From positions 1 to 18,014 of the IMG/VR virus record IMGVR_UViG_2778261276_000009: 18,014 nt of DNA. One strand, written 5' to 3'. The notes beneath the pieces were generated by a model. The model ran no database searches. It was not told the DNA's origin and worked only from the letters and a program-made list of their open reading frames with translations. Shown one piece after another: positions 7,747 through 18,014 of the stretch. The position numbers were made by a program, and so were the translations under genes. Source of the stretch: a virus (lineage: Duplodnaviria > Heunggongvirae > Uroviricota > Caudoviricetes). Each line of letters begins with the position of its first letter. Within the stretch, counting starts at the first letter, position 1.

Positions 7747-8679
7747 ATGAGCAGTAAGCTTCATGGTCTTGTCTGGGAAGGGTGTGCCTTCACAGGCATG
7801 ATCTTATCCAGAGTGGCAGTAATGGCTCGCCTTGCAGACTACAGCAATGACGAAGGTGTGTCATGGCCTGCAGTGGAGACCATTCGTCGTCAGATTGGGG
7901 CAAAGAGTGAATCAACGGTTAAAGCTGCGATAGCTGAACTGGAAAAGAACGGCTGGCTGACGAAGGAGGAACGTAAGGTCGGTGGGCGTAATGAAAGCAA
8001 TATCTACCGTCTTAATGTGGAAAAACTCGAAGCAGCAGCAGCGGCGGCGCGTGAGGCATATAAACCGAAAAGAAAAATTAACCCGGCAAAAAATGACCCG
8101 CTAACCGTTGACCCGTCAAATTCTGATGGATCAACCGTTGATAAAAAACAGCCGGTTAGGGGGGCGATGGTTGGCCCCGATCCGTCAGTATTAAAACCTG
8201 ATCCGTCAGATAAAAGATCTTCTTGTCCGGAAACTTCGCAACCGGACGAGAAGACAGCTGAACAGGCGTTTTTAACCCGTCATCCTGATGCGGTTGTGTT
8301 CAGTGTGAAAAAACGCCAGTGGGGAACTCAGGAAGATTTGACGTGTGCGCAGTGGATCTGGTGGCGAATCGTGAGTCTTTACGAACAGGCTGCCAGCGAT
8401 GATGGCGAGATTACGCGACCGAAAGAACCCAACTGGACCGCATGGGCCAATGACGTGCGCACAATGCGGATGCTGGATGGCAGAACTCACAGGCAAATTT
8501 GCGAAATGTTCAGTCGGGTACAACGGGATCCATTCTGGGTAAAAAACGTCATGAGCCCGTCAAAGCTTCGCGAAAAATGGGATGAGCTGGTTATTCGTCT
8601 GGGACGTTCGCCTGTACAGCGTTGTGTGAATCACATTTCTGAACCGGACACCGAAATTCCGCCAGGGTTCAGGGGATAA
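7747..8679 (+). CDS. Putative replication initiation protein with N-terminal winged-helix domain
   Basis: 310-aa ORF; N-terminal region (LSRVAVMARLADYSNDEGVSWPAVETIRRQIGAKSESTVKAAIAELEKNGWL) typical of phage replication-initiator HTH domains; central low-complexity linker. Confidence 0.5.
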   Translation: MSSKLHGLVWEGCAFTGMILSRVAVMARLADYSNDEGVSWPAVETIRRQIGAKSESTVKAAIAELEKNGWLTKEERKVGGRNESNIYRLNVEKLEAAAAAAREAYKPKRKINPAKNDPLTVDPSNSDGSTVDKKQPVRGAMVGPDPSVLKPDPSDKRSSCPETSQPDEKTAEQAFLTRHPDAVVFSVKKRQWGTQEDLTCAQWIWWRIVSLYEQAASDDGEITRPKEPNWTAWANDVRTMRMLDGRTHRQICEMFSRVQRDPFWVKNVMSPSKLREKWDELVIRLGRSPVQRCVNHISEPDTEIPPGFRG

Positions 8680-8723
8680 GTTTGGTTTGAGATTGGTAAA
8701 TGATTTTAACGGGAGAAATTTTG

Positions 8724-9518
8724 ATGGAAACGTTGATTGATACGTTAAAAGCGATGCAAAAGGTGACGTGCACCGAGCTTGCTGCCAGTTTGGGCATTGA
8801 ACCTGCAGAGGCGATTAAAATGCTGAGGGAGTACGAAGAGCTGGGAGAAGTTGTGTCGGTTAATGGTTACTGGTCTGTTTCAGAACGACAAACGGGCGTG
8901 AAAGAAAAAAAAGTAACGGTGTGTAAAGTGGAAAGAAAATCCCATCCGGTGGTCAGCAGAAAAGAGCGTGAGCCACTGAATCGCTGCGACATCCTGTCCA
9001 CACTTGCTCATGGTGGGGCAATGACCACCGCTGAGATTGCAATTGCTGTGGGGCGTGCTGATTGCGTCAGGTCGCTGGTTTCTGCGATGGAAAAGCTTTG
9101 CCGCGATGGCATGGTGATTAAGCTGGGACAGGGGAAGGGGTGTAAGTGGATGCAGGTAAAAGAAACCGGGGAAAATTTACCAGCAGAGCCGAAAGTTGTA
9201 TCGGTAGAGAAAACACTTGGTAAAGCCTTTTCTCAGCCAGCCGGTGTTGCGTTACCAGTACAGGAAGCGGCAACACAGGAAGAAATTAAAACAGATACTG
9301 TGGGGGACATTGTGCAGTCGTTGCCATCGTTCACTGAAACGCGAGCCAATGGCCTGATTTTACCATCGCTGCATATGGCAAACCGCGAACTGCGCCGGGC
9401 GAAAAGTCATGTCCAGAAGTGGGAGCGAGTCTGCGCCGCGCTGCGGGAGCTGAACAAGCACCAGGATATTGTCCGACAGATTGTCGATTCCTCCAGTCGT
9501 ATTGTGTCGGAAAAGTGA
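8724..9518 (+). CDS. Hypothetical protein with two predicted winged-helix-like regions and a C-terminal helical tail; no Walker A motif
   Basis: GGGAG SD 8 nt upstream of ATG 8724 (ORF track gives 8700); sits where a helicase loader would be expected but has no GxxxxGK[ST]. Confidence 0.5.
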   Translation: METLIDTLKAMQKVTCTELAASLGIEPAEAIKMLREYEELGEVVSVNGYWSVSERQTGVKEKKVTVCKVERKSHPVVSRKEREPLNRCDILSTLAHGGAMTTAEIAIAVGRADCVRSLVSAMEKLCRDGMVIKLGQGKGCKWMQVKETGENLPAEPKVVSVEKTLGKAFSQPAGVALPVQEAATQEEIKTDTVGDIVQSLPSFTETRANGLILPSLHMANRELRRAKSHVQKWERVCAALRELNKHQDIVRQIVDSSSRIVSEK

Positions 9519-9534
9519 TTCCTGGGGAGGGCTT

Positions 9535-9954
9535 ATGGCAAAAGTATTTACACAGGAAGAGCGGGAAAAAATTAAAGGGCAGATCGTTGATCTCGTACGC
9601 CAGAGTGGGCGCGAGACGTTACGACAACTGGAAGCTAAAACGGGGGCGACAAGATATCAGATAAGTGTTCTTGCCAGGGAGTTGGTTGCGAATGGTGACG
9701 TATACAACTCTGGCTACGGGTTATTCCCGTCTGAGCAGGCACGTAAAGACTGGCAAAACGCCCGCAAAAAACTATCGAGGGCAAAGGTGAAGAAACCAGT
9801 TGTGGTTGATCCAGACCTTATTTGGTCATTACTAGACGGAGAAATACGTCGTTACGACAGGCGTCATAATATAATTTGTAGTGAGTGCCGTAAAAGCGAA
9901 GTTATGAAGCGCATATTGTCGTTTTATCAGGGAGATGTTCGGTATTTATTGTAG
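9535..9954 (+). CDS. Hypothetical 139-aa protein
   Basis: GGGGAGGG SD before ATG 9535 (internal to track ORF 9469-9954); HTH-like segment TLRQLEAKTGATRYQISVLARELV. Confidence 0.55.
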   Translation: MAKVFTQEEREKIKGQIVDLVRQSGRETLRQLEAKTGATRYQISVLARELVANGDVYNSGYGLFPSEQARKDWQNARKKLSRAKVKKPVVVDPDLIWSLLDGEIRRYDRRHNIICSECRKSEVMKRILSFYQGDVRYLL

Positions 9955-10156
9955 TGATGATATTTAAGAGCATTAATTAATATGTGAATTGACATTTTCA
10001 TGGCATAGGGTAGAGCTAGCGTGGTTGTCCGCTTTGTGCCATTACCGGACATACTGAGCAGAAGGTTTAAAAGAACGCTTTCAGGACATATAGCAAGAGA
10101 GCAGGGATGATAGAATAAACCCAGTATATTTAATGTTTCAATCATGATAGTTTCTG

Positions 10157-10184
10157 AATTAAAGGGGGGTATCCCCCTTTAATT
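10157..10184. terminator. Perfect 28-bp palindrome at the 3' end of the 92-aa gene, likely bidirectional terminator
   Basis: AATTAAAGGGGGG-T-ATCCCCCTTTAATT at 10157-10184, between convergent genes. Confidence 0.5.
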
Positions 10185-10461
10185 ACTTGTACCACTCAGT
10201 CTGAATTTGGTTACTAACTTCATCAGAGAGATTGTACCAATAAACTAAGTTATTGGTTGCGTCTACAACAATAAGTTTATCATCACTATCCATGACCGCC
10301 CTCACAATTTTGGCTGCATCCTCGGCAGAGTAACTACAGTTAACATACCAGTTCGATTCAGTTGTTAAAGCCCAATTTCCTAAAGATTTAATTGCATCAT
10401 ACACAGCCGCATAATCTTTCGTTTTAATGAGGTCATAAGTAATAAATAAATTATTAGCCAT
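10183..10461 (-). CDS. Hypothetical 92-aa protein of unknown family
   Basis: ATG 10461 with GGAG 8 nt upstream; alternating predicted strand and helix segments; not recognised. Confidence 0.6.
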   Translation of the reverse strand: MANNLFITYDLIKTKDYAAVYDAIKSLGNWALTTESNWYVNCSYSAEDAAKIVRAVMDSDDKLIVVDATNNLVYWYNLSDEVSNQIQTEWYK

Positions 10462-10483
10462 AAATCATCTCCAAAAGGACAAA

Positions 10484-10507
10484 GAAAAAAGCGCCTAGAA
10501 AGGCGCT
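10484..10507 (-). terminator. Intrinsic terminator after the DUF3606-like gene
   Basis: Stem GCGCCT-agaa-AGGCGC (10491-10506); the minus strand reads hairpin then UUUUUUCUUU. Confidence 0.6.
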
Positions 10508-10513
10508 CATATA

Positions 10514-10693
10514 TTAATGGTCTTTAAGCCATGCCTGTACTTTCTTAGCCGAATGACCTACAGCCTGTACGGCTTGAACAAGTTTGGCCTCGCTAACTCC
10601 AAACTTTTCAGCCCAATCACGTCTTTCGTAATCCTGTTTGATACTTATTAAATCATTGTCAGGGGTACCGATTTTGGTCTTATCATCAGCCAT
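10514..10693 (-). CDS. DUF3606-like small protein (about 59 aa)
   Basis: MADDKTKIGTPDNDLISIKQDYERRDWAEKFGVSEAKLVQAVQAVGHSAKKVQAWLKDH matches the DUF3606 pattern as I recall it; GAGGAA SD upstream of ATG 10693. Confidence 0.6.
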   Translation of the reverse strand: MADDKTKIGTPDNDLISIKQDYERRDWAEKFGVSEAKLVQAVQAVGHSAKKVQAWLKDH

Positions 10694-11184
10694 TTTACTG
10701 ATTCCTCGTGATACAGGCTTATACCTGCCCATTAGTTATATGACTCCCGTGCCGCTTCGTAAACGTTCAATAATTAAACAATTGACGCTGATCATAAAAC
10801 CAGTTAAGGGATTTGACTCTACCTTGGATATATGATGATGCCACCCCCTTTATATTGTTGTCGGTAATTCACAGGCATTGAACTCATGCTGGTGAGTGAA
10901 AGACCACATAAACGCCCAACATTTAAACTGCTCTCAGCAGCGTTCGCGGAGCAATATACAGGCTTCGTATTCAATCCTTCCCCTACGAGAAATCCTAGCC
11001 GCTACCTCGTTTTCAAGTGTCAGTAAGTTCTTTGTCAGACATCATACAGTCTTGAGCTGGGTGAGGTGCATGGGGGAAGCTGAAGCCTTAACTGTTGAGG
11101 TAAATCGAACCATAAGTGTGCAATTTTTCAAGCCCGGCGCTATTTTAGTCTTGAAAACAATTAGTACGCCCCCAAGGACAACTC

Positions 11185-11877
11185 ATGATCGAATTTATCG
11201 CAGAGCATATAAACACAATAAGCACACTTATCTCCGCTTGGGCAGCATTGCTAACAGCAGTTGCTACATTTTTCTTGTGGAGAGTAACAAGGCTATTAGC
11301 AGACGAGACAAAAAGGATGGTTGACGCATCAGTTCAACCTCACGTCGTTGTGACTCTTGAACCAAATTCTTGGGCTGCTTTTTATTTTGATATCAATATT
11401 GCTAATACCGGAAATGCCCCAGCCTATGATATTGAAATCGGATTTAATCCCCCACTGGTAAATGCTGAACATAGAAAAAATAAAGGTATACCATTTAGCA
11501 AGGTTAGCGTATTAAAAAACGGCCATTCGCTCAACAGCAGTCTTTGTAAGTATGAACAGATTAAAGATCAAGTTTATTCTGTTAGTATTAGTTGGTCTAA
11601 ACAGCCGGGCTCAACTGAAAGAGAGCGGAATGAGTATTCTTATGATATGGCTTCTTTCGAGGGGGTTAGCTACTTAGGTGCAAGGAGTCCAATGACACAG
11701 ATAGCCGAGCAGGTGAAAAAGATTAGAGAAGACTGGAGGCCGATTTCCCATGGAAGCAAAAAAATTAAAACAGACAACTATAATTCAAGTGACAGAGCCG
11801 AGGAACAACGATTACGTGAAGAGTGGTATCAGACCACTGCAAAGAAATGGGATAAAGAAAAGCAAAAAGATAACTAA
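11185..11877 (+). CDS. Hypothetical 230-aa protein with single N-terminal transmembrane anchor
   Basis: AAGGA SD 6 nt upstream; hydrophobic segment about residues 12-33 (ISTLISAWAALLTAVATFFLWRV); preceded by about 450 nt without convincing coding sequence. Confidence 0.7.
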   Translation: MIEFIAEHINTISTLISAWAALLTAVATFFLWRVTRLLADETKRMVDASVQPHVVVTLEPNSWAAFYFDINIANTGNAPAYDIEIGFNPPLVNAEHRKNKGIPFSKVSVLKNGHSLNSSLCKYEQIKDQVYSVSISWSKQPGSTERERNEYSYDMASFEGVSYLGARSPMTQIAEQVKKIREDWRPISHGSKKIKTDNYNSSDRAEEQRLREEWYQTTAKKWDKEKQKDN

Positions 11878-12206
11878 TACAATTGACCTGATCCCCATAA
11901 ATTAGCATACCACAATCTCAGGTCCGCTCTTCGCTCACAGCGGACCTTCAGCTCCGGTAACTTATCCACTTCGTGCAAATTTCTCTCATAAGGGACAACC
12001 ATACTCAAATCTCCCACATTTCAGGAGGTATGAGTATGAGCACGTCACCGTGGAACAAAGACCAGATGGTCCGTTTAAGCGGGATACTTACAATCTAACT
12101 TCTGTTGGGTCAAGCCCTGAAAGCCGCTTAACATGAACTGTCCAACTTTATGGGGGCAGTCCAGTTGTAGCGGCTTTTTAGTATATCGTTAGAGGGGGGG
12201 GTAATA

Positions 12207-12998
12207 CTATACTGGTAATTGCTTTGTGTCAGGCATTGGCTCGGAAAATCTTTCAAAATCGCTGTACGTGCTTTCATCAAAGAGCGAGATCGCTTCAATT
12301 TGTTCGATAGGAATGACGTGTCGAAAATGTTGTAAATTTAATGGTTCGGACTCAAATGTGATTTCTTTGGATAGATAGAGATCATAGTATCGGTGTTGTT
12401 CTATGTAGCGTAGTGAATCCTTATCTCTGTAACCACTAATGAATGGTATGATCTCAAGATGCGCACAGTTGTGGAATTCAACACGTGGTGCTGCCACATA
12501 CCCGATATATACTTTTCTGGATTTTAGTGTTACAAAAATCAGCATCTCTGTGTCAATGGCTTGGATCAATAGGTTTTCTAGTGAATCTTTTGATGCCATC
12601 TCCCTGTAAGCCTTTTGGCGCGCTTCTTCATTCTCCATTTCTTTTCGCGCATCCACCCCTTCAGAGTAAGCAATACAACAAGCGAAAATGATGGTGATGA
12701 CAGCAAAAAGTGGTAATTCCATCACTTTGGTTTCAAGTAACCAATTAAAAAAATGCCATTCTATAGGTTTGTCTCGGAAAATATTGATTATGTGTGGGAT
12801 AGAGTTCAGTAGCCAGAAAAGCATGTAGATCCCGAGCGTCAAAAGAAATCCTTGAGCAACAAAACGACACCCATGCATTGCAACGTAGAAATAGGATGAC
12901 CACCCATTTGTTCTTGCGTGATGAATTCTCGATTGATAGTGATTCTCGGTGTACCAAAAACCACACACGAGAATCACAGTTATAATCAATGGACCCAT
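12207..12998 (-). CDS. Hypothetical 263-aa membrane protein (three predicted TM helices plus about 150-aa soluble C-terminal domain)
   Basis: ATG 12998 overlaps the stop of the upstream 72-aa gene (TAATG); AGGAAG SD; hydrophobic segments near residues 3-15, 46-63 and 96-112; no recognised catalytic motif. Confidence 0.7.
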   Translation of the reverse strand: MGPLIITVILVCGFWYTENHYQSRIHHARTNGWSSYFYVAMHGCRFVAQGFLLTLGIYMLFWLLNSIPHIINIFRDKPIEWHFFNWLLETKVMELPLFAVITIIFACCIAYSEGVDARKEMENEEARQKAYREMASKDSLENLLIQAIDTEMLIFVTLKSRKVYIGYVAAPRVEFHNCAHLEIIPFISGYRDKDSLRYIEQHRYYDLYLSKEITFESEPLNLQHFRHVIPIEQIEAISLFDESTYSDFERFSEPMPDTKQLPV

Positions 12999-13216
12999 TA
13001 AGCAACTTCCTTGTCTGTACGGTTATGTAGTTTTCGCAATTGTTTCATTTTCTTGATGATGTCTGCTTGAACTTCTGGGTTTTCTATGTTCAGGGTGGCA
13101 TTACCGTTCGCATCAACTGTAAGACGATATTTTGTCGTTTGCTCAAGATGGGTGTCAACATGGGTTGCTACAGCACTTGTGTATCGACGAAGCACTTTTC
13201 CGATAAGTGTGGGCAT
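12998..13216 (-). CDS. Hypothetical 72-aa soluble protein, first gene of the two-gene operon
   Basis: GGAGAG SD 6 nt upstream of ATG 13216 (track ORF starts at 13222, where SD spacing would be 0); stop TAA 12998-13000 overlaps the downstream start. Confidence 0.6.
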   Translation of the reverse strand: MPTLIGKVLRRYTSAVATHVDTHLEQTTKYRLTVDANGNATLNIENPEVQADIIKKMKQLRKLHNRTDKEVA

Positions 13217-13231
13217 ATGCATCTCTCCATT

Positions 13232-13300
13232 GTTAGTGACTAACTTTTATTACATGTTATTTACTATATAGACAACGAAAAGAAAATAAAGTTGTAGTAT
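13232..13300 (-). promoter_or_regulatory. Promoter and palindromic operator of the two-gene operon
   Basis: Minus strand: TTGTCT, 17 nt, TAATAA, then perfect 13-bp palindrome GTTAGTGACTAAC (plus 13232-13244) directly upstream of the SD. Confidence 0.45.
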
Positions 13301-13394
13301 CGAATGAACTAGAGGGGAGGGTAAGTAAAATCGCTGCGGGTGCTTGAGGCTATCTGTCTCAGGCATGAACACCAAAAGGCAGATAAAGAAAAGC

Positions 13395-13465
13395 CCAGTT
13401 AACATTACGCGTCCTGCAAGACGCTTAACATTAATCTGAGGCTCAATCTATGAACGGCAAATCTA
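13395..13465 (-). ncRNA. Predicted Sok-like antisense RNA of the hok locus (position inferred, boundaries approximate)
   Basis: hok leader strongly resembles the R1 hok/mok leader, where Sok is transcribed antisense across the mok start region; no promoter hexamers confidently identified. Confidence 0.25.
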
Positions 13466-13506
13466 GGTTAGCCTCTTACGTGCCGAAAGGCAAGGAGAAG
13501 CAGGCT

Positions 13507-13662
13507 ATGAAGCAGCAAAAGGCGATGTTAATCGCCCTGATCGTCATCTGTTTAACCGTCATAGTGACGGCACTGGTAACGAGGAAAGACCTCTGCGAGG
13601 TACGAATCCGAACCGGCCAGACGGAGGTTGCTGTCTTCGTGGACTACGAATCTGAGAAGTAA
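13507..13662 (+). CDS. hok: Hok/Gef-family type I toxin (HokD/RelF-like)
   Basis: MKQQKAMLIALIVICLTVIVTALVTRKDLCEVRIRTGQTEVAVF is near-identical to HokD as recalled; upstream leader GGTGCTTGAGGC (13339-13350) and mok-like upstream ATG at 13450 resemble the R1 hok leader; 3' segment GCATCCTCAATGCACC (13709-13724) is complementary to the 5' end. Confidence 0.85.
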   Translation: MKQQKAMLIALIVICLTVIVTALVTRKDLCEVRIRTGQTEVAVFVDYESEK

Positions 13663-13719
13663 GAGTGACCAGGCGGGAGAGTAATCTCCCGCCACCTCTG
13701 ATGTGTCGGCATCCTCAAT

Positions 13720-13755
13720 GCACCCGCGCTTAACCCTCTTTGGCGTTTTTTTTTG
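13720..13755 (+). terminator. 3' end of hok mRNA (T-run 13746-13754)
   Basis: Long T-run after a GC-rich segment; a perfect 9-bp stem with GTAA loop at 13672-13693 lies just after the stop. Confidence 0.45.
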
Positions 13756-13890
13756 CTTTCAGATAATAAATTTACCAAAATGGTTTACAAAATCATTTTT
13801 TATGATAATTTATTAGTCATGAAGTCTTCATCACAGGTTGTGCTCCGAAAATAGGCAGCCTGTTACTTATAGCGAATCGAGGAATTAACT

Positions 13891-14250
13891 ATGGCACTCA
13901 CTGAATTCGGTAAGGCCGTTAGAAAAGCGAGGATAGATACCGACTGCACATTGCTTACGATGGCTCAAGAACTGGGAGTAACTTCAGCTTTTCTGAGCGG
14001 TTTAGAAACAGGCAGTAAGAAAATCCCCAAAAAATGGGTAAAAGAGATTCAGGCTTTTTTCCTGAAAAGAGGTTATGAGATTAATAATCTTCAGGAATTG
14101 GCTGATGTATCTAATCAGTTTGTTTCCCTTGATGGATTGTCGCAAAATCAGCAAATGTTGGTTGCTGGTTTTGCTAAATCCCCATTAACACCAGAGCAGT
14201 TAAAGCGAATAGCAGAGTTGATGAAAAGTATTAATCATGTTGAGGGATGA
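13891..14250 (+). CDS. XRE-family helix-turn-helix transcriptional regulator
   Basis: 119-aa ORF, GAGGAA SD; HTH segment LTMAQELGVTSAFLSGLETG; inverted repeats upstream (AAAATG...CATTTT 13778-13801; TGAAGTCTTCA 13824-13834). Confidence 0.8.
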   Translation: MALTEFGKAVRKARIDTDCTLLTMAQELGVTSAFLSGLETGSKKIPKKWVKEIQAFFLKRGYEINNLQELADVSNQFVSLDGLSQNQQMLVAGFAKSPLTPEQLKRIAELMKSINHVEG

Positions 14251-14253
14251 TCG

Positions 14254-14736
14254 TTGGAACAATCAGCTTACACATTACGTGGAAATCGTGTTGCACCAAT
14301 GAGTATTGTTGATATAACAACTCGCGCTGTTAACTATAGCGCGATCTTCGACCTTAAAACGTTGAAAAGAAAAAAGCGGTTAGACCATGCATTTGAGTTG
14401 TTGAGTGAATATGGGATAACGCTCAATATCGTTGAGGATCGTGCGTGGACTAAAGCTACATATGATTTGACATCTGGGCATTACGATCCAATTACACTTA
14501 CAATTAGTGTGCCGAATCATACATTTGAGTTGGCATGTAAAGGTGATAGAGAAGCATTATTTGTGCTCTTTCATGAAATCGGACATTTGGTGTTGGGGCA
14601 TAGAGCGTTATTTCACAGTTCCAATAAACCACCTTCGCAAATTGAAGATGCTGAATGGCAAGCAGATTTGTTTGCCGAGGTGGTTTTGCGCGAATTAGGA
14701 TTTTATATGGATCAACTATCATTTGACTTTTTATAA
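14254..14736 (+). CDS. ImmA/IrrE-family (COG2856-type) zinc metallopeptidase
   Basis: HEIGHLVLGH (HEXXH) at 14569-14601; start 4 nt after the XRE stop; TTG at 14254 has a GAGGGA SD, the alternative ATG at 14299 has none. Confidence 0.8.
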   Translation: MEQSAYTLRGNRVAPMSIVDITTRAVNYSAIFDLKTLKRKKRLDHAFELLSEYGITLNIVEDRAWTKATYDLTSGHYDPITLTISVPNHTFELACKGDREALFVLFHEIGHLVLGHRALFHSSNKPPSQIEDAEWQADLFAEVVLRELGFYMDQLSFDFL

Positions 14737-14738
14737 AA

Positions 14739-14760
14739 AAGCCCTGCTGTAACAGGGCTT
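14739..14760 (-). terminator. Hairpin whose U-run is on the minus strand
   Basis: AAGCCCTG-ctgtaa-CAGGGCTT; the plus strand has the A-run before it and no T-run after, so it terminates leftward transcripts most efficiently. Confidence 0.5.
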
Positions 14761-15064
14761 AGGATGGAAAGTCCGATAACTTTCCAGTGCAGATGGAGAA
14801 CCCCACCGCCACACTTGGATTTGACAGATGCAAGTTTAGCGGTTCTCCCAACAAATCGCAACCTGTATGGGGATACAGGTATGCAGGGACTTGCTTGTTA
14901 TGGCAATGAAAATCTGTAAGGAATGCGGAAAACCGTGCGAAATTATTTTTCGTTATTCCGTTTGTATCAATGGAGTTATGCGATATGCGAGGAAGGGGCA
15001 CCCTTTCCCGATTCCTGTTTGTGGTTGCTCCCGAACGTAGAGTTGCATAATGATCTAATCTAAA

Positions 15065-15084
15065 CCCGCTTCGGCGGGTTTTTT
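15065..15084 (+). terminator. Intrinsic terminator, plus-oriented
   Basis: CCCGC-ttcg-GCGGG followed by TTTTTT (15079-15084). Confidence 0.65.
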
Positions 15085-15159
15085 GTTTTACGTATTCTGG
15101 TTTACAATCCACAGGCCAGCCTGAACAACTGGCACCTGCTGCGCCAGCAGAGACAACCG

Positions 15160-15438
15160 ATGGCGCACGATACCAAATTACACAATTCTAATGATTCTGC
15201 TGTCTTTGCCAGCAGGTGCGGACGGCGTTTTCACGCATTCAAATCAGACTGGTTCCAGCATCCTCCATGCACTGAAGAGCAGGCTGAATGGATAATTCAG
15301 TGTTACCGCAGGCGTGGATACGAGGTTAAGAAAGCTCTTAGTCTCGACTATCGTCACTGGATAATCTCAGTCAGACTCCCTTACTCCGAACGCCCACCGC
15401 GTCCGTCCCGCACATTCCAGCAACGGATTTGGAGGTAA
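15160..15438 (+). CDS. Hypothetical 92-aa protein, first gene of the nin-like block
   Basis: ORF ends 2 nt before the DUF968 gene start; weak SD; a TACAAT -10-like hexamer at 15103-15108 precedes it. Confidence 0.45.
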   Translation: MAHDTKLHNSNDSAVFASRCGRRFHAFKSDWFQHPPCTEEQAEWIIQCYRRRGYEVKKALSLDYRHWIISVRLPYSERPPRPSRTFQQRIWR

Positions 15439-15439
15439 C

Positions 15440-16498
15440 GTGCGGGTATTACTTCGACCTGTTCTGGTACCGGAACTCGGGCTGGTGGTCCTTAAGCCAG
15501 GTCGTGAATCCATGCAGGTATTTCACAATCCTCGAGTGCTGGTGGAGCCGGAATCGAAAAGCATGTGCGGCCTGCCATCCGGAGTCGTCCCTGCCGTTCG
15601 CCAGCCGCTGGCGGAGGATAAATCATTACTGCCATTTTTCAGCGATGAGCGGGTGATTCGTGCTGCTGGCGGCGCTGGGGCACTGTCTGACTGGCTGTTG
15701 CGTCATGTCAAATCCTGCCAGTGGCCTCATGGTGACTATCATCACAGTGAAATCGTCATACATCGTTACGGTACCGGCGCGATGGTGTTGTGCTGGCACT
15801 GCGACAACCAGCTGCGTGACCAGACATCCGAATCACTCGAGCAACTTGCTCATCAAAATCTGTCAGCATGGATGATTGACGTCATACGCCATGCAATGAA
15901 TGGCACGCAGGAGAGGGAGTTATCGCTGGCTGAATTATCCTGGTGGGCGGTCTGCAATCAAGTGGCGGACGCGCTTCCGGAGGCAGTATTACGTCGTTCT
16001 CTGGGGTTACGTGCGGAAAAAATCCGCGCGGTGTACCGCGAAAGCGACATCGTACCGGGAGAGCAGACCGCCACCAACATACTGAAGCAGCGCACAAAAA
16101 ATCTTGCGCCGTTGCCTCACTCCCACCAGCAACAGAACCCACCACTGGAAAATACGGTGGTATGCATCACCGTTGATCCGGAGTCTCCGGAATCTTTCAT
16201 GAGGCGACCTAAACGTCGCCGTTGGGTAAATGAGAAATATACGCGCTGGGTGAAGACACAGCCGTGTGCGTGTTGTGGTCAACCAGCCGACGATCCCCAT
16301 CACCTGATTGGTCACGGTCAGGGAGGGATGGGAACAAAGGCTGATGATTTGTTTGTTATTCCGCTGTGCCGTAAATGTCATAACGAACTGCACGCCGGGG
16401 TAAAAGATTTTGAAGAAAAACACGGCAGCCAGCTGTTGTTGCTGATTCGTTTTTTAATGCACGCGAGAAATTCGGGTGTCCTGAAGTGGAAAGCATGA
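15440..16498 (+). CDS. DUF968-domain protein (YdfU-like)
   Basis: 352-aa ORF with GTG start after GGAGG; C-terminal Cys/His-rich motif CACCGQPADDPHHLIGHG...CRKCHNELH typical of DUF968 as recalled; directly upstream of rusA. Confidence 0.75.
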   Translation: MRVLLRPVLVPELGLVVLKPGRESMQVFHNPRVLVEPESKSMCGLPSGVVPAVRQPLAEDKSLLPFFSDERVIRAAGGAGALSDWLLRHVKSCQWPHGDYHHSEIVIHRYGTGAMVLCWHCDNQLRDQTSESLEQLAHQNLSAWMIDVIRHAMNGTQERELSLAELSWWAVCNQVADALPEAVLRRSLGLRAEKIRAVYRESDIVPGEQTATNILKQRTKNLAPLPHSHQQQNPPLENTVVCITVDPESPESFMRRPKRRRWVNEKYTRWVKTQPCACCGQPADDPHHLIGHGQGGMGTKADDLFVIPLCRKCHNELHAGVKDFEEKHGSQLLLLIRFLMHARNSGVLKWKA

Positions 16499-16876
16499 AT
16501 GACTGAACGCATAGAATTTGTTTTGCCTTACCCGCCGACGGTGAATACCTACTGGCGACGTCATGGCAATACGTATTTCATCTCGGAGGCCGGAAAGCGT
16601 TATCGCCGTGATGTGGCACTAATTGTTCGCCAGCAGCGACTGAAATTAAACCTGTCCGGAAGGCTGGCAATAAAAATTATTGCAGAGCCACCGGATAAGC
16701 GCCGCCGCGACCTGGACAATATCCTGAAGGCACCACTGGATGCGCTGACGCATGCCGGACTACTTATAGACGACGAGCAGTTTGATGAAATCAATATTGT
16801 GCGCGGACTGCCTGTTCCTGGTGGGCGGTTGGGCGTGAAGATTTACGAAATTACAGGTGATAACGATGGTGCGTGA
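16499..16876 (+). CDS. rusA: Holliday-junction resolvase RusA
   Basis: 125-aa product with RusA-like [10 protein letters not shown] and LDAL...DD motifs; ATG immediately follows the upstream TGA. Confidence 0.85.
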
Positions 16877-17252
16877 TATTCAGCAGGTTATGGAGCGGTG
16901 GGGAGCATGGGCTGCGAACAATCACGAAGATGTGTCATGGGCGTCAATCGCTGCTGGTTTTAAAGGATTAATCCCGCCGAAAGTGAAATCACGCCCTCAG
17001 TGTTCTGATGATGATGCAATGATAATTTGTGGCTGTATGGCCCGGTTGAACAAGAAAAATCAGGATTTGCACGATTTGTTGGTGGATTATTACGTAGGTG
17101 GAATGACTTTTATGGGGTTGGCACGAAAGCATGGGTGTTCGGATACCTGTATTGGCAAGCGCCTGCAGAAAGCGGAAGGGGTTATTGATGGCATGTTGAT
17201 GATGCTTGATATCCGACTGGAGATGGACAGATACGTAGAACGAATCATGTAG
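16866..17252 (+). CDS. Late-gene antiterminator Q-like protein
   Basis: About 128-aa ORF overlapping the rusA end (ATG 16866, AGGTGA SD); Cys-rich central region; immediately followed by a promoter and short terminated leader. Confidence 0.7.
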
Positions 17253-17256
17253 GAGC

Positions 17257-17286
17257 TTGACCAGACACATTGTCCGGGGCTATATT
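17257..17286 (+). promoter_or_regulatory. Candidate late promoter (lambda pR'-like)
   Basis: TTGACC (17257-17262), 18-nt spacer, TATATT (17281-17286), directly after the Q stop. Confidence 0.5.
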
Positions 17287-17346
17287 CCTCACGCGCCAGC
17301 AAAATCTGGCGTCGGGATTGGCGTCCCGGATGAAAAAGGCGACAAC

Positions 17347-17367
17347 AGACGCGCCAGCGTCTTTTTT
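17347..17367 (+). terminator. tR'-like terminator of the short late leader RNA
   Basis: AGACGC-gcca-GCGTCT followed by TTTTTT; two more hairpins (GCCAG...CTGGC, CGGGA...TCCCG) lie between promoter and terminator. Confidence 0.6.
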
Positions 17368-17525
17368 ATTGTCGTTTGCACTGTCGCATCTCAATGGTGG
17401 GCTGTGTGGGGGCGGAGCGATCCGCGCCGGTTCCTTTTTCCCGGTTACGCCAACCCTGCACAGTTCACCACCATACTGATTGGCGTCAGCAGTGGTGATG
17501 ATTCACATAGAAAAAGGATCATCCT

Positions 17526-18014
17526 ATGGCTATTCAAATCTCAGTTGAAACTCTTTCCCCGATCACCCATAACCAAATCCCTGTCATTACTACCGAGCTT
17601 TTGGCACAACTTTATGGCACCGAAACTAATAACATCAAAGTGAACTATACACGCAATGCCGAGCGTTTTGTTTGTGGGAAACACTACTTCAAATTGGAAG
17701 GGGCTGAGTTGCGGGAATTTAAGAACAAGGTTACTCAAAGTAACTTAGTTGCACCGCGTACAAAGCACCTCATCCTCTGGACAGAACGCGGAGCAGCCCG
17801 TCACGCCAAAATGCTGGAAACCGATCAGGCGTGGGAAGTGTTCGAAAAACTGGAAGACTGTTATTTCAGCCAAAAACAACCACCAGCAGCACAAAACACC
17901 CCAACCCAAAATGATGGATGCGCATTACTGATCCACTTCGATAAACACGGTCAGGTCGACTTCACGGAAAAACTACCCGCCGATGCGATGGTATGCACTC
18001 TGGAACGGTTTTAA
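17526..18014 (+). CDS. ORF6N/KilA-N-like domain protein, first gene after the late promoter
   Basis: 162-aa ORF with AAGGA SD; N-terminal region (VITTELLAQLYGTETNNIKVNYTRNAERFVCGKHYFKLEGAELREFK) resembles ORF6N-type domains found in antirepressor/Rha-like proteins; stop TAA is the last codon of the window. Confidence 0.6.
   Translation: MAIQISVETLSPITHNQIPVITTELLAQLYGTETNNIKVNYTRNAERFVCGKHYFKLEGAELREFKNKVTQSNLVAPRTKHLILWTERGAARHAKMLETDQAWEVFEKLEDCYFSQKQPPAAQNTPTQNDGCALLIHFDKHGQVDFTEKLPADAMVCTLERF

Follow-up and report, generated by a model that had tools for sequence, protein, structure and literature searches.

The window analysed here, an 18,014-nucleotide (nt) stretch of a Caudoviricetes genome (IMG/VR record IMGVR_UViG_2778261276_000009), contains a block of cargo genes at positions 9955–15090. 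The block lies between DUF977, which stops at 9954, and a rem-like gene that starts at 15160, with DUF968, RusA and Q beyond it. Four modules are distinguished within it (Table 1). M1 carries a DUF3606 gene, a gene for a 92-amino-acid (aa) protein and a gene for a 230-aa protein. M2 carries a pair of genes for 74-aa and 263-aa proteins, and M3 is a hok/sok locus. M4 comprises an XRE-family gene, an ImmA-type protease gene, a structured RNA leader and a 46-aa Cys-rich gene. All genes listed for the block in a preliminary description of this DNA were found in their places.

That description placed an AT-rich cargo block between the replication and nin/Q sides of the prophage, with which the flanking genes and the base composition agree. 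G+C content (GC) is 0.413 within the block compared with 0.481 across the remaining window, and the 5136-nt frame with the lowest GC in the whole window begins at 9851. At third codon positions (GC3) the cargo genes range from 0.32 to 0.45 against 0.45–0.55 for the flanking phage genes, hok being the exception at 0.69. The separate termination of units was likewise upheld, as the block holds 11 terminator-like hairpins, compared with 4.9 ± 2.2 in shuffled sequences, and these are located at unit ends (10162–10180, 10489–10508, 14739–14760 and 15062–15081). A long hairpin with a T-run after it lies at 12120–12177.

Table 1. Modules and individual features of the cargo block, with positions in the window.
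Feature	Position	Strand	Remarks
Module M1	10051–11921
Module M2	11922–13321
Module M3	13322–13752
Module M4	13753–15060
Junction after DUF977	9955–10052		Left slot boundary; conserved backbone, 80–90% identity in 2087 of 5426 genomes
G+C hairpin AAAGGGGGGTATCCCCCTTT	10162–10180	bidirectional	Terminator scan, both strands; between early-right operon and end of 92-aa gene
92-aa protein (phrog_1090)	10183–10461	-	Second gene of DS-46 pair; 88/92 identical (96%) to WP_000002748.1
Intrinsic-terminator-like hairpin	10489–10508	-	Between DUF3606 gene and 92-aa gene; T-run present
DUF3606 protein, 59 aa	10514–10693	-	First gene of DS-46 pair; Pfam PF12244 4e-18; 59/59 identical to WP_001406733.1
230-aa protein	11185–11877	+	'Putative lysogenic conversion protein' of P2-EC53 Z region
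Scarred spacer	11922–12206		Hairpin 11922–11947; long hairpin and T-run 12120–12182; SA31-1 homology resumes at 11922
263-aa membrane protein	12207–12998	-	2–3 transmembrane helices, C-terminal Sm/LSm-like barrel; motifs TLKSRKVYIG and SGYR invariant
74-aa soluble partner	12998–13222	-	72 aa with RefSeq start; TAATG stop/start overlap with 263-aa gene, translationally coupled
hok/sok type I toxin–antitoxin locus	13322–13752	+	mok start 13450; hok 13507–13662; sok/leader match 13338–13512
Degenerate hok-terminator copy	13729–13753	+	Left member of ~25-nt imperfect direct repeat flanking M4; aligns with 15060–15084
XRE-family helix-turn-helix protein, 119 aa	13891–14250	+	Pfam HTH_3 19.7 bits (below cut-off); PADLOC HTH_VI 1e-6, capH 2e-3
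ImmA/IrrE-type zinc metalloprotease, 160 aa	14254–14736	+	HEIGH motif; Peptidase_M78 21.7 bits against cut-off of 22; phrog_87 metallo-protease 2e-15
Structured RNA leader, five helices	14741–14879	+	P1 (14741–14758) is the hairpin at the ImmA gene end
46-aa Cys-rich (zinc-ribbon-like) gene	14900–15040	+	Unannotated; coding signature against 70%-identical allele
Intrinsic terminator AAACCCGCTTCGGCGGGTTT, then T-run	15062–15081	+	Right slot boundary; displaced original hok terminator

Recurring breakpoints and alternative cargo

Independent pairwise BLASTN alignments with related loci break at the same positions, 10050/10052, 11922/11937, 13752/13754 and 15047–15064. Homology of the left flank ends at 10050 in SA31-1 and at 10052 in phage Tritos. 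The P2-like records P2-EC53 and R18C align over 9983–11937, and homology to SA31-1 restarts at 11922. The third break falls at 13752 in EC43, Tritos and Qin and at 13754 in the prophage loci L008 and L016, while homology restarts at 15047–15064 in EC43, Tritos and L008.

Frequencies were counted in 5426 complete E. coli genomes, with at least 80% coverage required for the junction, M1 and the whole block, and any match accepted for the left flank. The left flank is present in 2989 genomes, more than half, and the 98-nt junction following DUF977 in 2087, whereas the whole block occurs in 4. M1 was found in 99 genomes, M2 in 7 and M4, at 99% identity, in 6; the stretch 3' of the ImmA gene (14737–15062) has an approximately 70%-identical allele in about 50.

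Between the same DUF977 and rem/DUF968 flanks, the slots of SA31-1, EC43, Tritos, L008, L031, L032 and Qin differ in content. M2, M3 and M4 are present without M1 in SA31-1. M1 to M3 without M4 occupy the slots of L008, L016 and EC43, with nothing after hok in L008 and L016, and M3 and M4 without M1 or M2 those of L031 and L032. Known defence systems are among the alternative contents recognised by PADLOC, and the published system DS-46 lies within the window itself, as described below. In EC43 the position after hok is taken by RosmerTA (RmrT 1e-24, RmrA 1e-105), and in Tritos by a RosmerTA-related pair, the Tritos slot also holding PDC-S15 (1e-98).

The interval is very probably a hotspot for accessory genes (moron/defence), placed where ren/DUF977 meets nin in a lambdoid E. 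coli prophage of Qin/Rac type, with four cassettes that have been independently acquired and exchanged. The variable cargo hotspot suspected in the preliminary description is therefore borne out by a flank found in 2989 genomes against a block found in 4, and by sister prophages that carry other cargo between the same flanks. This is the opposite of content and order being conserved across related phages with known non-defence functions. The DUF3606 pair and the 230-aa gene, which it gave as separate units, travel as a single cassette that is shared with P2-like phages.

Cassette exchange would proceed by recombination at short common boundary sequences, mostly hairpins or terminators. Each cassette would use signals of its own for expression in the lysogen, and the benefit to lysogen and prophage would come from addiction and from excluding other phages or aborting their infection. 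To reach Q, transcription from pR would need to cross the block by antitermination.

Over 9500–15500 the sequence is 100.0% identical to the chromosome of E. coli BCE049 (NZ_CP042250.1), a 2-nt length difference aside, and the whole window is 98.9% identical. The prophage, which is of lambdoid type, adjoins potC in that strain. To the left of the block the order is int, xis, exo, dicB, ydfA, LexA-family repressor, cro, ydaT, replication gene, DUF1627 and DUF977, and to the right rem-like, DUF968, RusA, Q, lysis genes and terminase genes. DUF977, upstream of the slot, is the last early-right gene and corresponds to the phrog 'Ren-like exclusion protein'. The non-coding stretch that follows it (9955–10052) may contain a tR2-like signal, a point we raise as a question, and a 72-aa minus-strand open reading frame (ORF) overlapping this junction at 9927–10145 found no support. 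Past position ~17201, in the Q region (17201–18014), the window departs from BCE049 and other assemblies fit better, L012 for example being 99.95% identical over 8158–17874; the window may come from a sister strain, or the Q/late region may itself be mosaic.

A further observation concerns SA31-1, in which the place of M1 (L003 3688–6761) is taken by TetR, an adenosine deaminase (CARF_ADA-like, 3e-36), a HAM1 NTP pyrophosphatase and a ThsA-like SIR2 protein (3e-31). This set is a candidate nucleotide-targeting defence cluster, and it fits no complete known system.

M1 contains DS-46 and is shared with P2-like phages

By sequence, the DUF3606 and 92-aa genes of the window are the published defence system DS-46. 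The pair is listed as row 'RMRT' in Table S6 of the DefensePredictor study (Science 2026), where it is scored defensive = TRUE under the name DS-46 (PMC13092281). In that work DS-46 lowered phage plating in MG1655 (PMC13092281, Table S6, Fig. S7A). Of 24 transcription units picked at random from those remotely homologous to known defence proteins, it was the only one whose clone gave protection (PMC13092281). The 92-aa gene is preceded by a GGAG ribosome-binding site, and its product has no match in Pfam, NCBIfam or PADLOC. A diverged DUF3606/92-aa pair is found on its own at the edges of integrative islands, adjoining the integrase.

The 230-aa protein is modelled with an N-terminal transmembrane helix, an Ig-like beta-sandwich and C-terminal helices, and its fold matches are generic only. 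The single hydrophobic N-terminal helix agrees with the membrane anchor initially proposed for it. Homologues in Xanthomonas and Klebsiella also adjoin integrases. From its architecture and its fun(Z) position we would guess at a surface or exclusion role.

M1 is 95–96% identical to inserts in R18C, P2-EC53 and two sampled P2-like E. coli prophages, the latter drawn from 93 genomes with M1 at 95–99% identity. In every sampled P2-like case (R18C, P2-EC53 and the two prophages) it lies between the tail-fibre assembly and sheath genes, and the insert position in R18C is the fun(Z) location (PMC6823313). The left end of the P2-like cassette, 68 nt corresponding to 9983–10050, is part of the widely conserved lambdoid post-DUF977 junction, which suggests that the cassette was captured by P2-like phages from a lambdoid backbone. 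Inverted repeats are annotated around the P2-EC53 cassette; a repeat search found none and the best local alignment was weak, and we do not claim them as recombination sites.

These distributions bear on whether the block is ordinary lambdoid 'nin-type' lifecycle cargo, that is, conserved early or delayed-early genes for replication, recombination or lysis timing rather than for host benefit or defence. Its place in the path of pR transcription between the replication genes and Q would suit such genes, the slot of other prophages is filled with small plus-strand phage genes (Ea22-like, DUF551, DUF4406), and XRE/ImmA pairs control induction in other mobile elements (PMC10440598). However, half of the genes here lie on the other strand, with hairpins of their own at their ends, the same cassettes appear in unrelated P2-like slots and at island edges beside integrases, content varies among prophages with identical flanks, and one unit, DS-46, is experimentally defensive. 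Lifecycle cargo is thus a very unlikely description of the block compared with an accessory-gene hotspot.

A scarred spacer and a two-gene pair in M2

The spacer at the left of M2 holds two fragments of mobile DNA. Positions 11982–12063 are an 82-nt fragment from the 5' end of a site-specific integrase gene, which takes in the first codons and the region before them and is 87–94% identical to copies in many E. coli genomes, and 12110–12163 are a 54-nt fragment of an IS3-family element at 98% identity. Two short direct repeats shared with the hok leader had raised the possibility of a second hok remnant in 11922–12300; the repeats are not collinear and Rfam gives one sok, and this candidate was rejected. 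A run of G residues at 12196–12203 lies just past the stop codon of the 263-aa gene, and the 2-nt difference from RefSeq BCE049 falls between 11877 and 12207, making the G-run the likeliest site of that length difference, through slippage or sequencing error.

Such fragments could be the debris of one foreign island, whether transposon or integrative element, inserted once into the prophage and now decaying, the modules being merely its genes. Uniform AT-richness (GC 0.40–0.41 in M1, M2 and M4) is in keeping with a common origin of this kind, as is the identical arrangement in about 260 index blocks of the assembly collection. Against it, every module is also found apart from the rest (M1 by itself in about 93 P2-like prophages; also SA31-1, L008, L016, EC43, L031 and L032), and the block as a whole is not bounded by terminal repeats. 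Its ORFs are all intact, and in the one tested directly, the 46-aa ORF, the changes are mostly synonymous. We consider a single decaying island extremely improbable.

The preliminary description regarded the 74-aa and 263-aa genes as a two-gene membrane operon. The genes overlap by TAATG; the membrane protein comes from the 263-aa gene only. The C-terminal domain of the predicted 263-aa protein is a five-stranded bent beta-barrel superposable on Sm domains, whereas sequence searches with the protein found no match to Sm/LSm proteins or to any Pfam family. A profile search with the family recovered 2773 cluster representatives at 50% identity. Among 34 sampled members there was no PADLOC match, and the sole Pfam match was to DUF6338, in one distant member.

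Homologues of the pair were found at three further sites: in a Pantoea P2-like prophage (GpA-portal hotspot), in Serratia lambdoid prophages (Q-holin slot) and in the Photorhabdus chromosome. In all three the small partner gene precedes the membrane gene. Only the location of the pair in three separate cargo hotspots points to a possible role for M2 in defence or exclusion, where it would act as a membrane effector gated via a putative Sm-like ring. In the Pantoea prophage (L034 6052–7970) an AAA_21/AAA_15 ATPase gene and a 223-aa gene adjoin the pair, in a layout that resembles PARIS, Septu or AbiL.

A complete hok/sok locus in M3

The limits of M3 recur in comparisons with Tritos, EC43 and Qin. 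Its toxin gene matches Pfam HOK_GEF (PF01848) at 1e-22 and 79.8 bits, against a cut-off of 22, and encodes a hydrophobic segment at residues 1–30. An in-frame upstream start gives a 70-aa Mok (phrog MokW-like, 3e-32). The sok/leader RNA is matched over the full length of Rfam model RF01794 (1–157) at 96.2 bits, where the gathering score is 59. By these Pfam and Rfam matches the locus is complete. Many chromosomal hok loci are inactive; a functional hok/sok would kill cells that lose the element.

M4 combines an XRE/ImmA pair with a structured leader and a small gene

M4 is flanked by the imperfect direct repeat listed in Table 1, in which a good terminator on the right is paired with a degenerate copy on the left. 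In L008 and L016, which are without M4, a single copy is found directly after hok, from which it follows that M4 was inserted at the hok terminator.

The XRE gene is followed after a 3-nt gap by a gene for an HExxH protease of COG2856/M78, the arrangement of ImmR/ImmA- and CapH/CapP-type pairs. Weak matches of the protease include capP (4e-4), RmrA (6e-4 to 3e-3) and Lit, and in BLASTP against RmrA of EC43 it matches only around HExxH. Among 80 related viral loci from IMG/VR, XRE is upstream of ImmA in 78, and XRE, ImmA and a small ORF occur together as a trio in 60.

The region 3' of the ImmA gene had been described as structured and non-coding. The first half of that description stood and the second did not, as the RNA leader has covarying helices and a 46-aa gene lies inside the region. 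The five helices of the leader have 35 base pairs, for which 87.4% of cells are paired compared with 34–49% in slid controls. Changes on both sides are seen at 28 of the 35 pairs, compared with 13–18 in controls, and none of 500 shuffles matched the observed values. The wobble pairs point to the plus strand, with GU:AC at 60:26. For 14741–14879 there is no Rfam match at E <= 1, and the only match nearby, to rsmX, is at chance level and lies over the downstream terminator. A conserved A-run precedes P1, which with this run would serve better as a terminator on the minus strand.

When the 46-aa ORF is compared with its 70%-identical allele, 13 codons are identical, 18 differ synonymously and 12 non-synonymously, and the differences are distributed 10/5/25 over the three codon positions. 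Judged from these substitutions, the gene is under purifying selection. The consensus CxKCGxxCEIIFR...FPIPxCxC is shared by homologues that lie after ImmA in 60 of the 80 viral loci and in a Klebsiella phage. The gene is absent from the RefSeq annotation of BCE049, SA31-1 and Klebsiella phage ST13-OXA48phi12.4. The protein has no counterpart in Pfam, NCBIfam, PADLOC or PHROGs, and YnfU of Qin, considered as a relative, has no evident similarity when the two sequences are read together.

Two minus-strand alternatives were rejected. A small RNA running from a promoter-like site at 14970–14942 to the hairpin at 14760–14739 folds well (z = -4.5); it is disfavoured because the plus-strand gene has a codon-position signature and the wobble pairs favour the plus strand. 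A 117-aa ORF at 14759–15112 is without support.

By analogy with the families to which the two proteins belong, ImmA would cleave XRE on a stress or infection signal (PMC10440598), and cleavage of XRE would release expression of the small protein through the leader.

With hok/sok, a classical post-segregational killing locus, present next to M4, the modules might all be purely selfish addiction or toxin–antitoxin elements that stabilise themselves and the prophage and give no protection from other phages. The Qin slot carries relBE and hokD, HTH + ImmA-protease modules are the antitoxins in RosmerTA (PMC10440598), and the small-protein plus membrane-protein layout of M2 is typical of toxin–antitoxin pairs. 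Even the clone name of DS-46, RMRT, from a screen of remote HHblits homologues of defence proteins, suggests a Rosmer-toxin match. DS-46 nevertheless cut phage plating in MG1655 (PMC13092281). Addiction and defence are not exclusive roles, since RosmerTA and many toxin–antitoxin systems are themselves anti-phage (PMC10440598). A purely selfish function is very unlikely.

Strength and implications of the hotspot assignment

Several observations weigh against an exchangeable set of defence cassettes. The identical arrangement in about 260 index blocks of the assembly collection (drafts) belongs to one prophage lineage, and since the exact block is common to that whole lineage it must be stable on short time scales. 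The presence of the integrase and IS3-family fragments indicates that part of the region is decay. The compositional signature does not extend to hok, which is not AT-rich, and promoter-like sites in the block number 10 where 13 are expected, with no enrichment, so that the promoters which the preliminary description gave to several units are putative. The 92-aa protein of the window differs at 4 residues from the tested DS-46 partner, and the resemblance of the XRE and ImmA proteins to RmrA or to CapH/CapP is only remote. Finally, PADLOC 2.0.0, Pfam and NCBIfam returned no match for the 230-aa, 263-aa, 74-aa and 46-aa proteins, for which reason a defence role for these four is argued only from location. 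PADLOC recognised known systems in sister slots and none for the 230-aa, 263-aa, 74-aa, 92-aa and 46-aa proteins. Sequence searches of solved structures found nothing for the 230-aa, 263-aa and 92-aa proteins.

The block consists of one published system (DS-46), one toxin–antitoxin locus (hok/sok) and two uncharacterised candidate systems (M2 and M4). It is possible, though less likely than not, that the M2 pair, the four-part M4 module or both represent a novel type of immunity or exclusion system borne by phages. Were this the case for M4, its RNA would be a new cis-regulatory element gating a small effector. Testable leads are provided by the large unannotated Sm-like membrane family and by the conserved module of XRE, ImmA, structured RNA and micro-protein.

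New anti-phage systems are repeatedly found in the variable slots of temperate phages. Our results map the ren-nin slot in a very common lambdoid backbone and, because its boundaries are exact, it could be mined systematically as the P2/P4 hotspots were. They also identify a 1.9-kb cassette, M1, that moves between lambdoid and P2-like phages with the validated DS-46 on board.

Comparison with known systems

The type of region is well known from lambdoid mosaicism, morons, Qin and the P2/P4 hotspots, while the combination of cassettes is new. Apart from the DS-46 row, a literature search on this lambdoid slot as a defence hotspot, and on the RefSeq accessions of its proteins, found nothing.

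Qin of E. coli K-12 has the same slot, extending from the immunity/replication side to rem-ydfU(DUF968)-Q. Its hok and right flank are homologous to those of the window, at 91% over 260 nt and at 85%, respectively. Unlike the prophage of the window, Qin no longer has its replication genes; relBE, ydfV and flxA are present, and M1, M2 and M4 are all absent. The statement in the preliminary description that relBE-hokD fills the equivalent slot was accurate, as these genes sit between dicC/ydfX and rem-ydfU.

P2/P4 cargo hotspots are established as a kind of region. In P2-like phages they lie at Z/fun and, between GpA and GpQ, at old/tin, and their contents are quickly exchanged and also shared with prophages outside the P2 group (Rousset 2022, PMC9122126; Moura de Sousa 2026, PMC13586616). 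The block resembles them directly, M1 being the same DNA as in the Z/fun slot and the M2 pair having a homologue in the GpA-portal hotspot of the Pantoea P2-like prophage. It differs in lying at ren-nin, in a host element that is a lambdoid prophage of siphovirus type.

DS-46 has the same two genes in the same order as the pair in M1, with a DUF3606 protein that is 100% identical and a 92-aa protein that is 96% identical. The tested clone is from another strain; protection is reported for a near-identical clone while the copy in the window is known from its sequence. M3 shares with hok/sok loci such as hokD and hokW the Hok/Gef toxin, the overlapping mok frame and the sok/leader RNA model, and differs in that its native terminator was displaced by the insertion of M4, leaving a degenerate copy. 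In M2, the barrel of the 263-aa protein is fused to a membrane domain of 2–3 helices, in contrast to the ring proteins of the Sm/LSm/Hfq group.

M4 is comparable to RosmerTA, to ImmR/ImmA of ICEBs1 and to CapH/CapP of CBASS in pairing an XRE helix-turn-helix protein with an HExxH protease of ImmA/IrrE type. In RosmerTA, however, RmrA is a fusion of HTH and protease, whereas here the two are separate genes, and no protein of the window matches RmrT. Similarity to RmrA and CapP is marginal, with E values of about 1e-3 to 1e-4. Because similarity to RmrA and to CapH/CapP is remote, M4 may be likened to RosmerTA in its working (PMC10440598) rather than counted as a member, with a structured leader and a 46-aa zinc-ribbon gene following the pair in place of RmrT.

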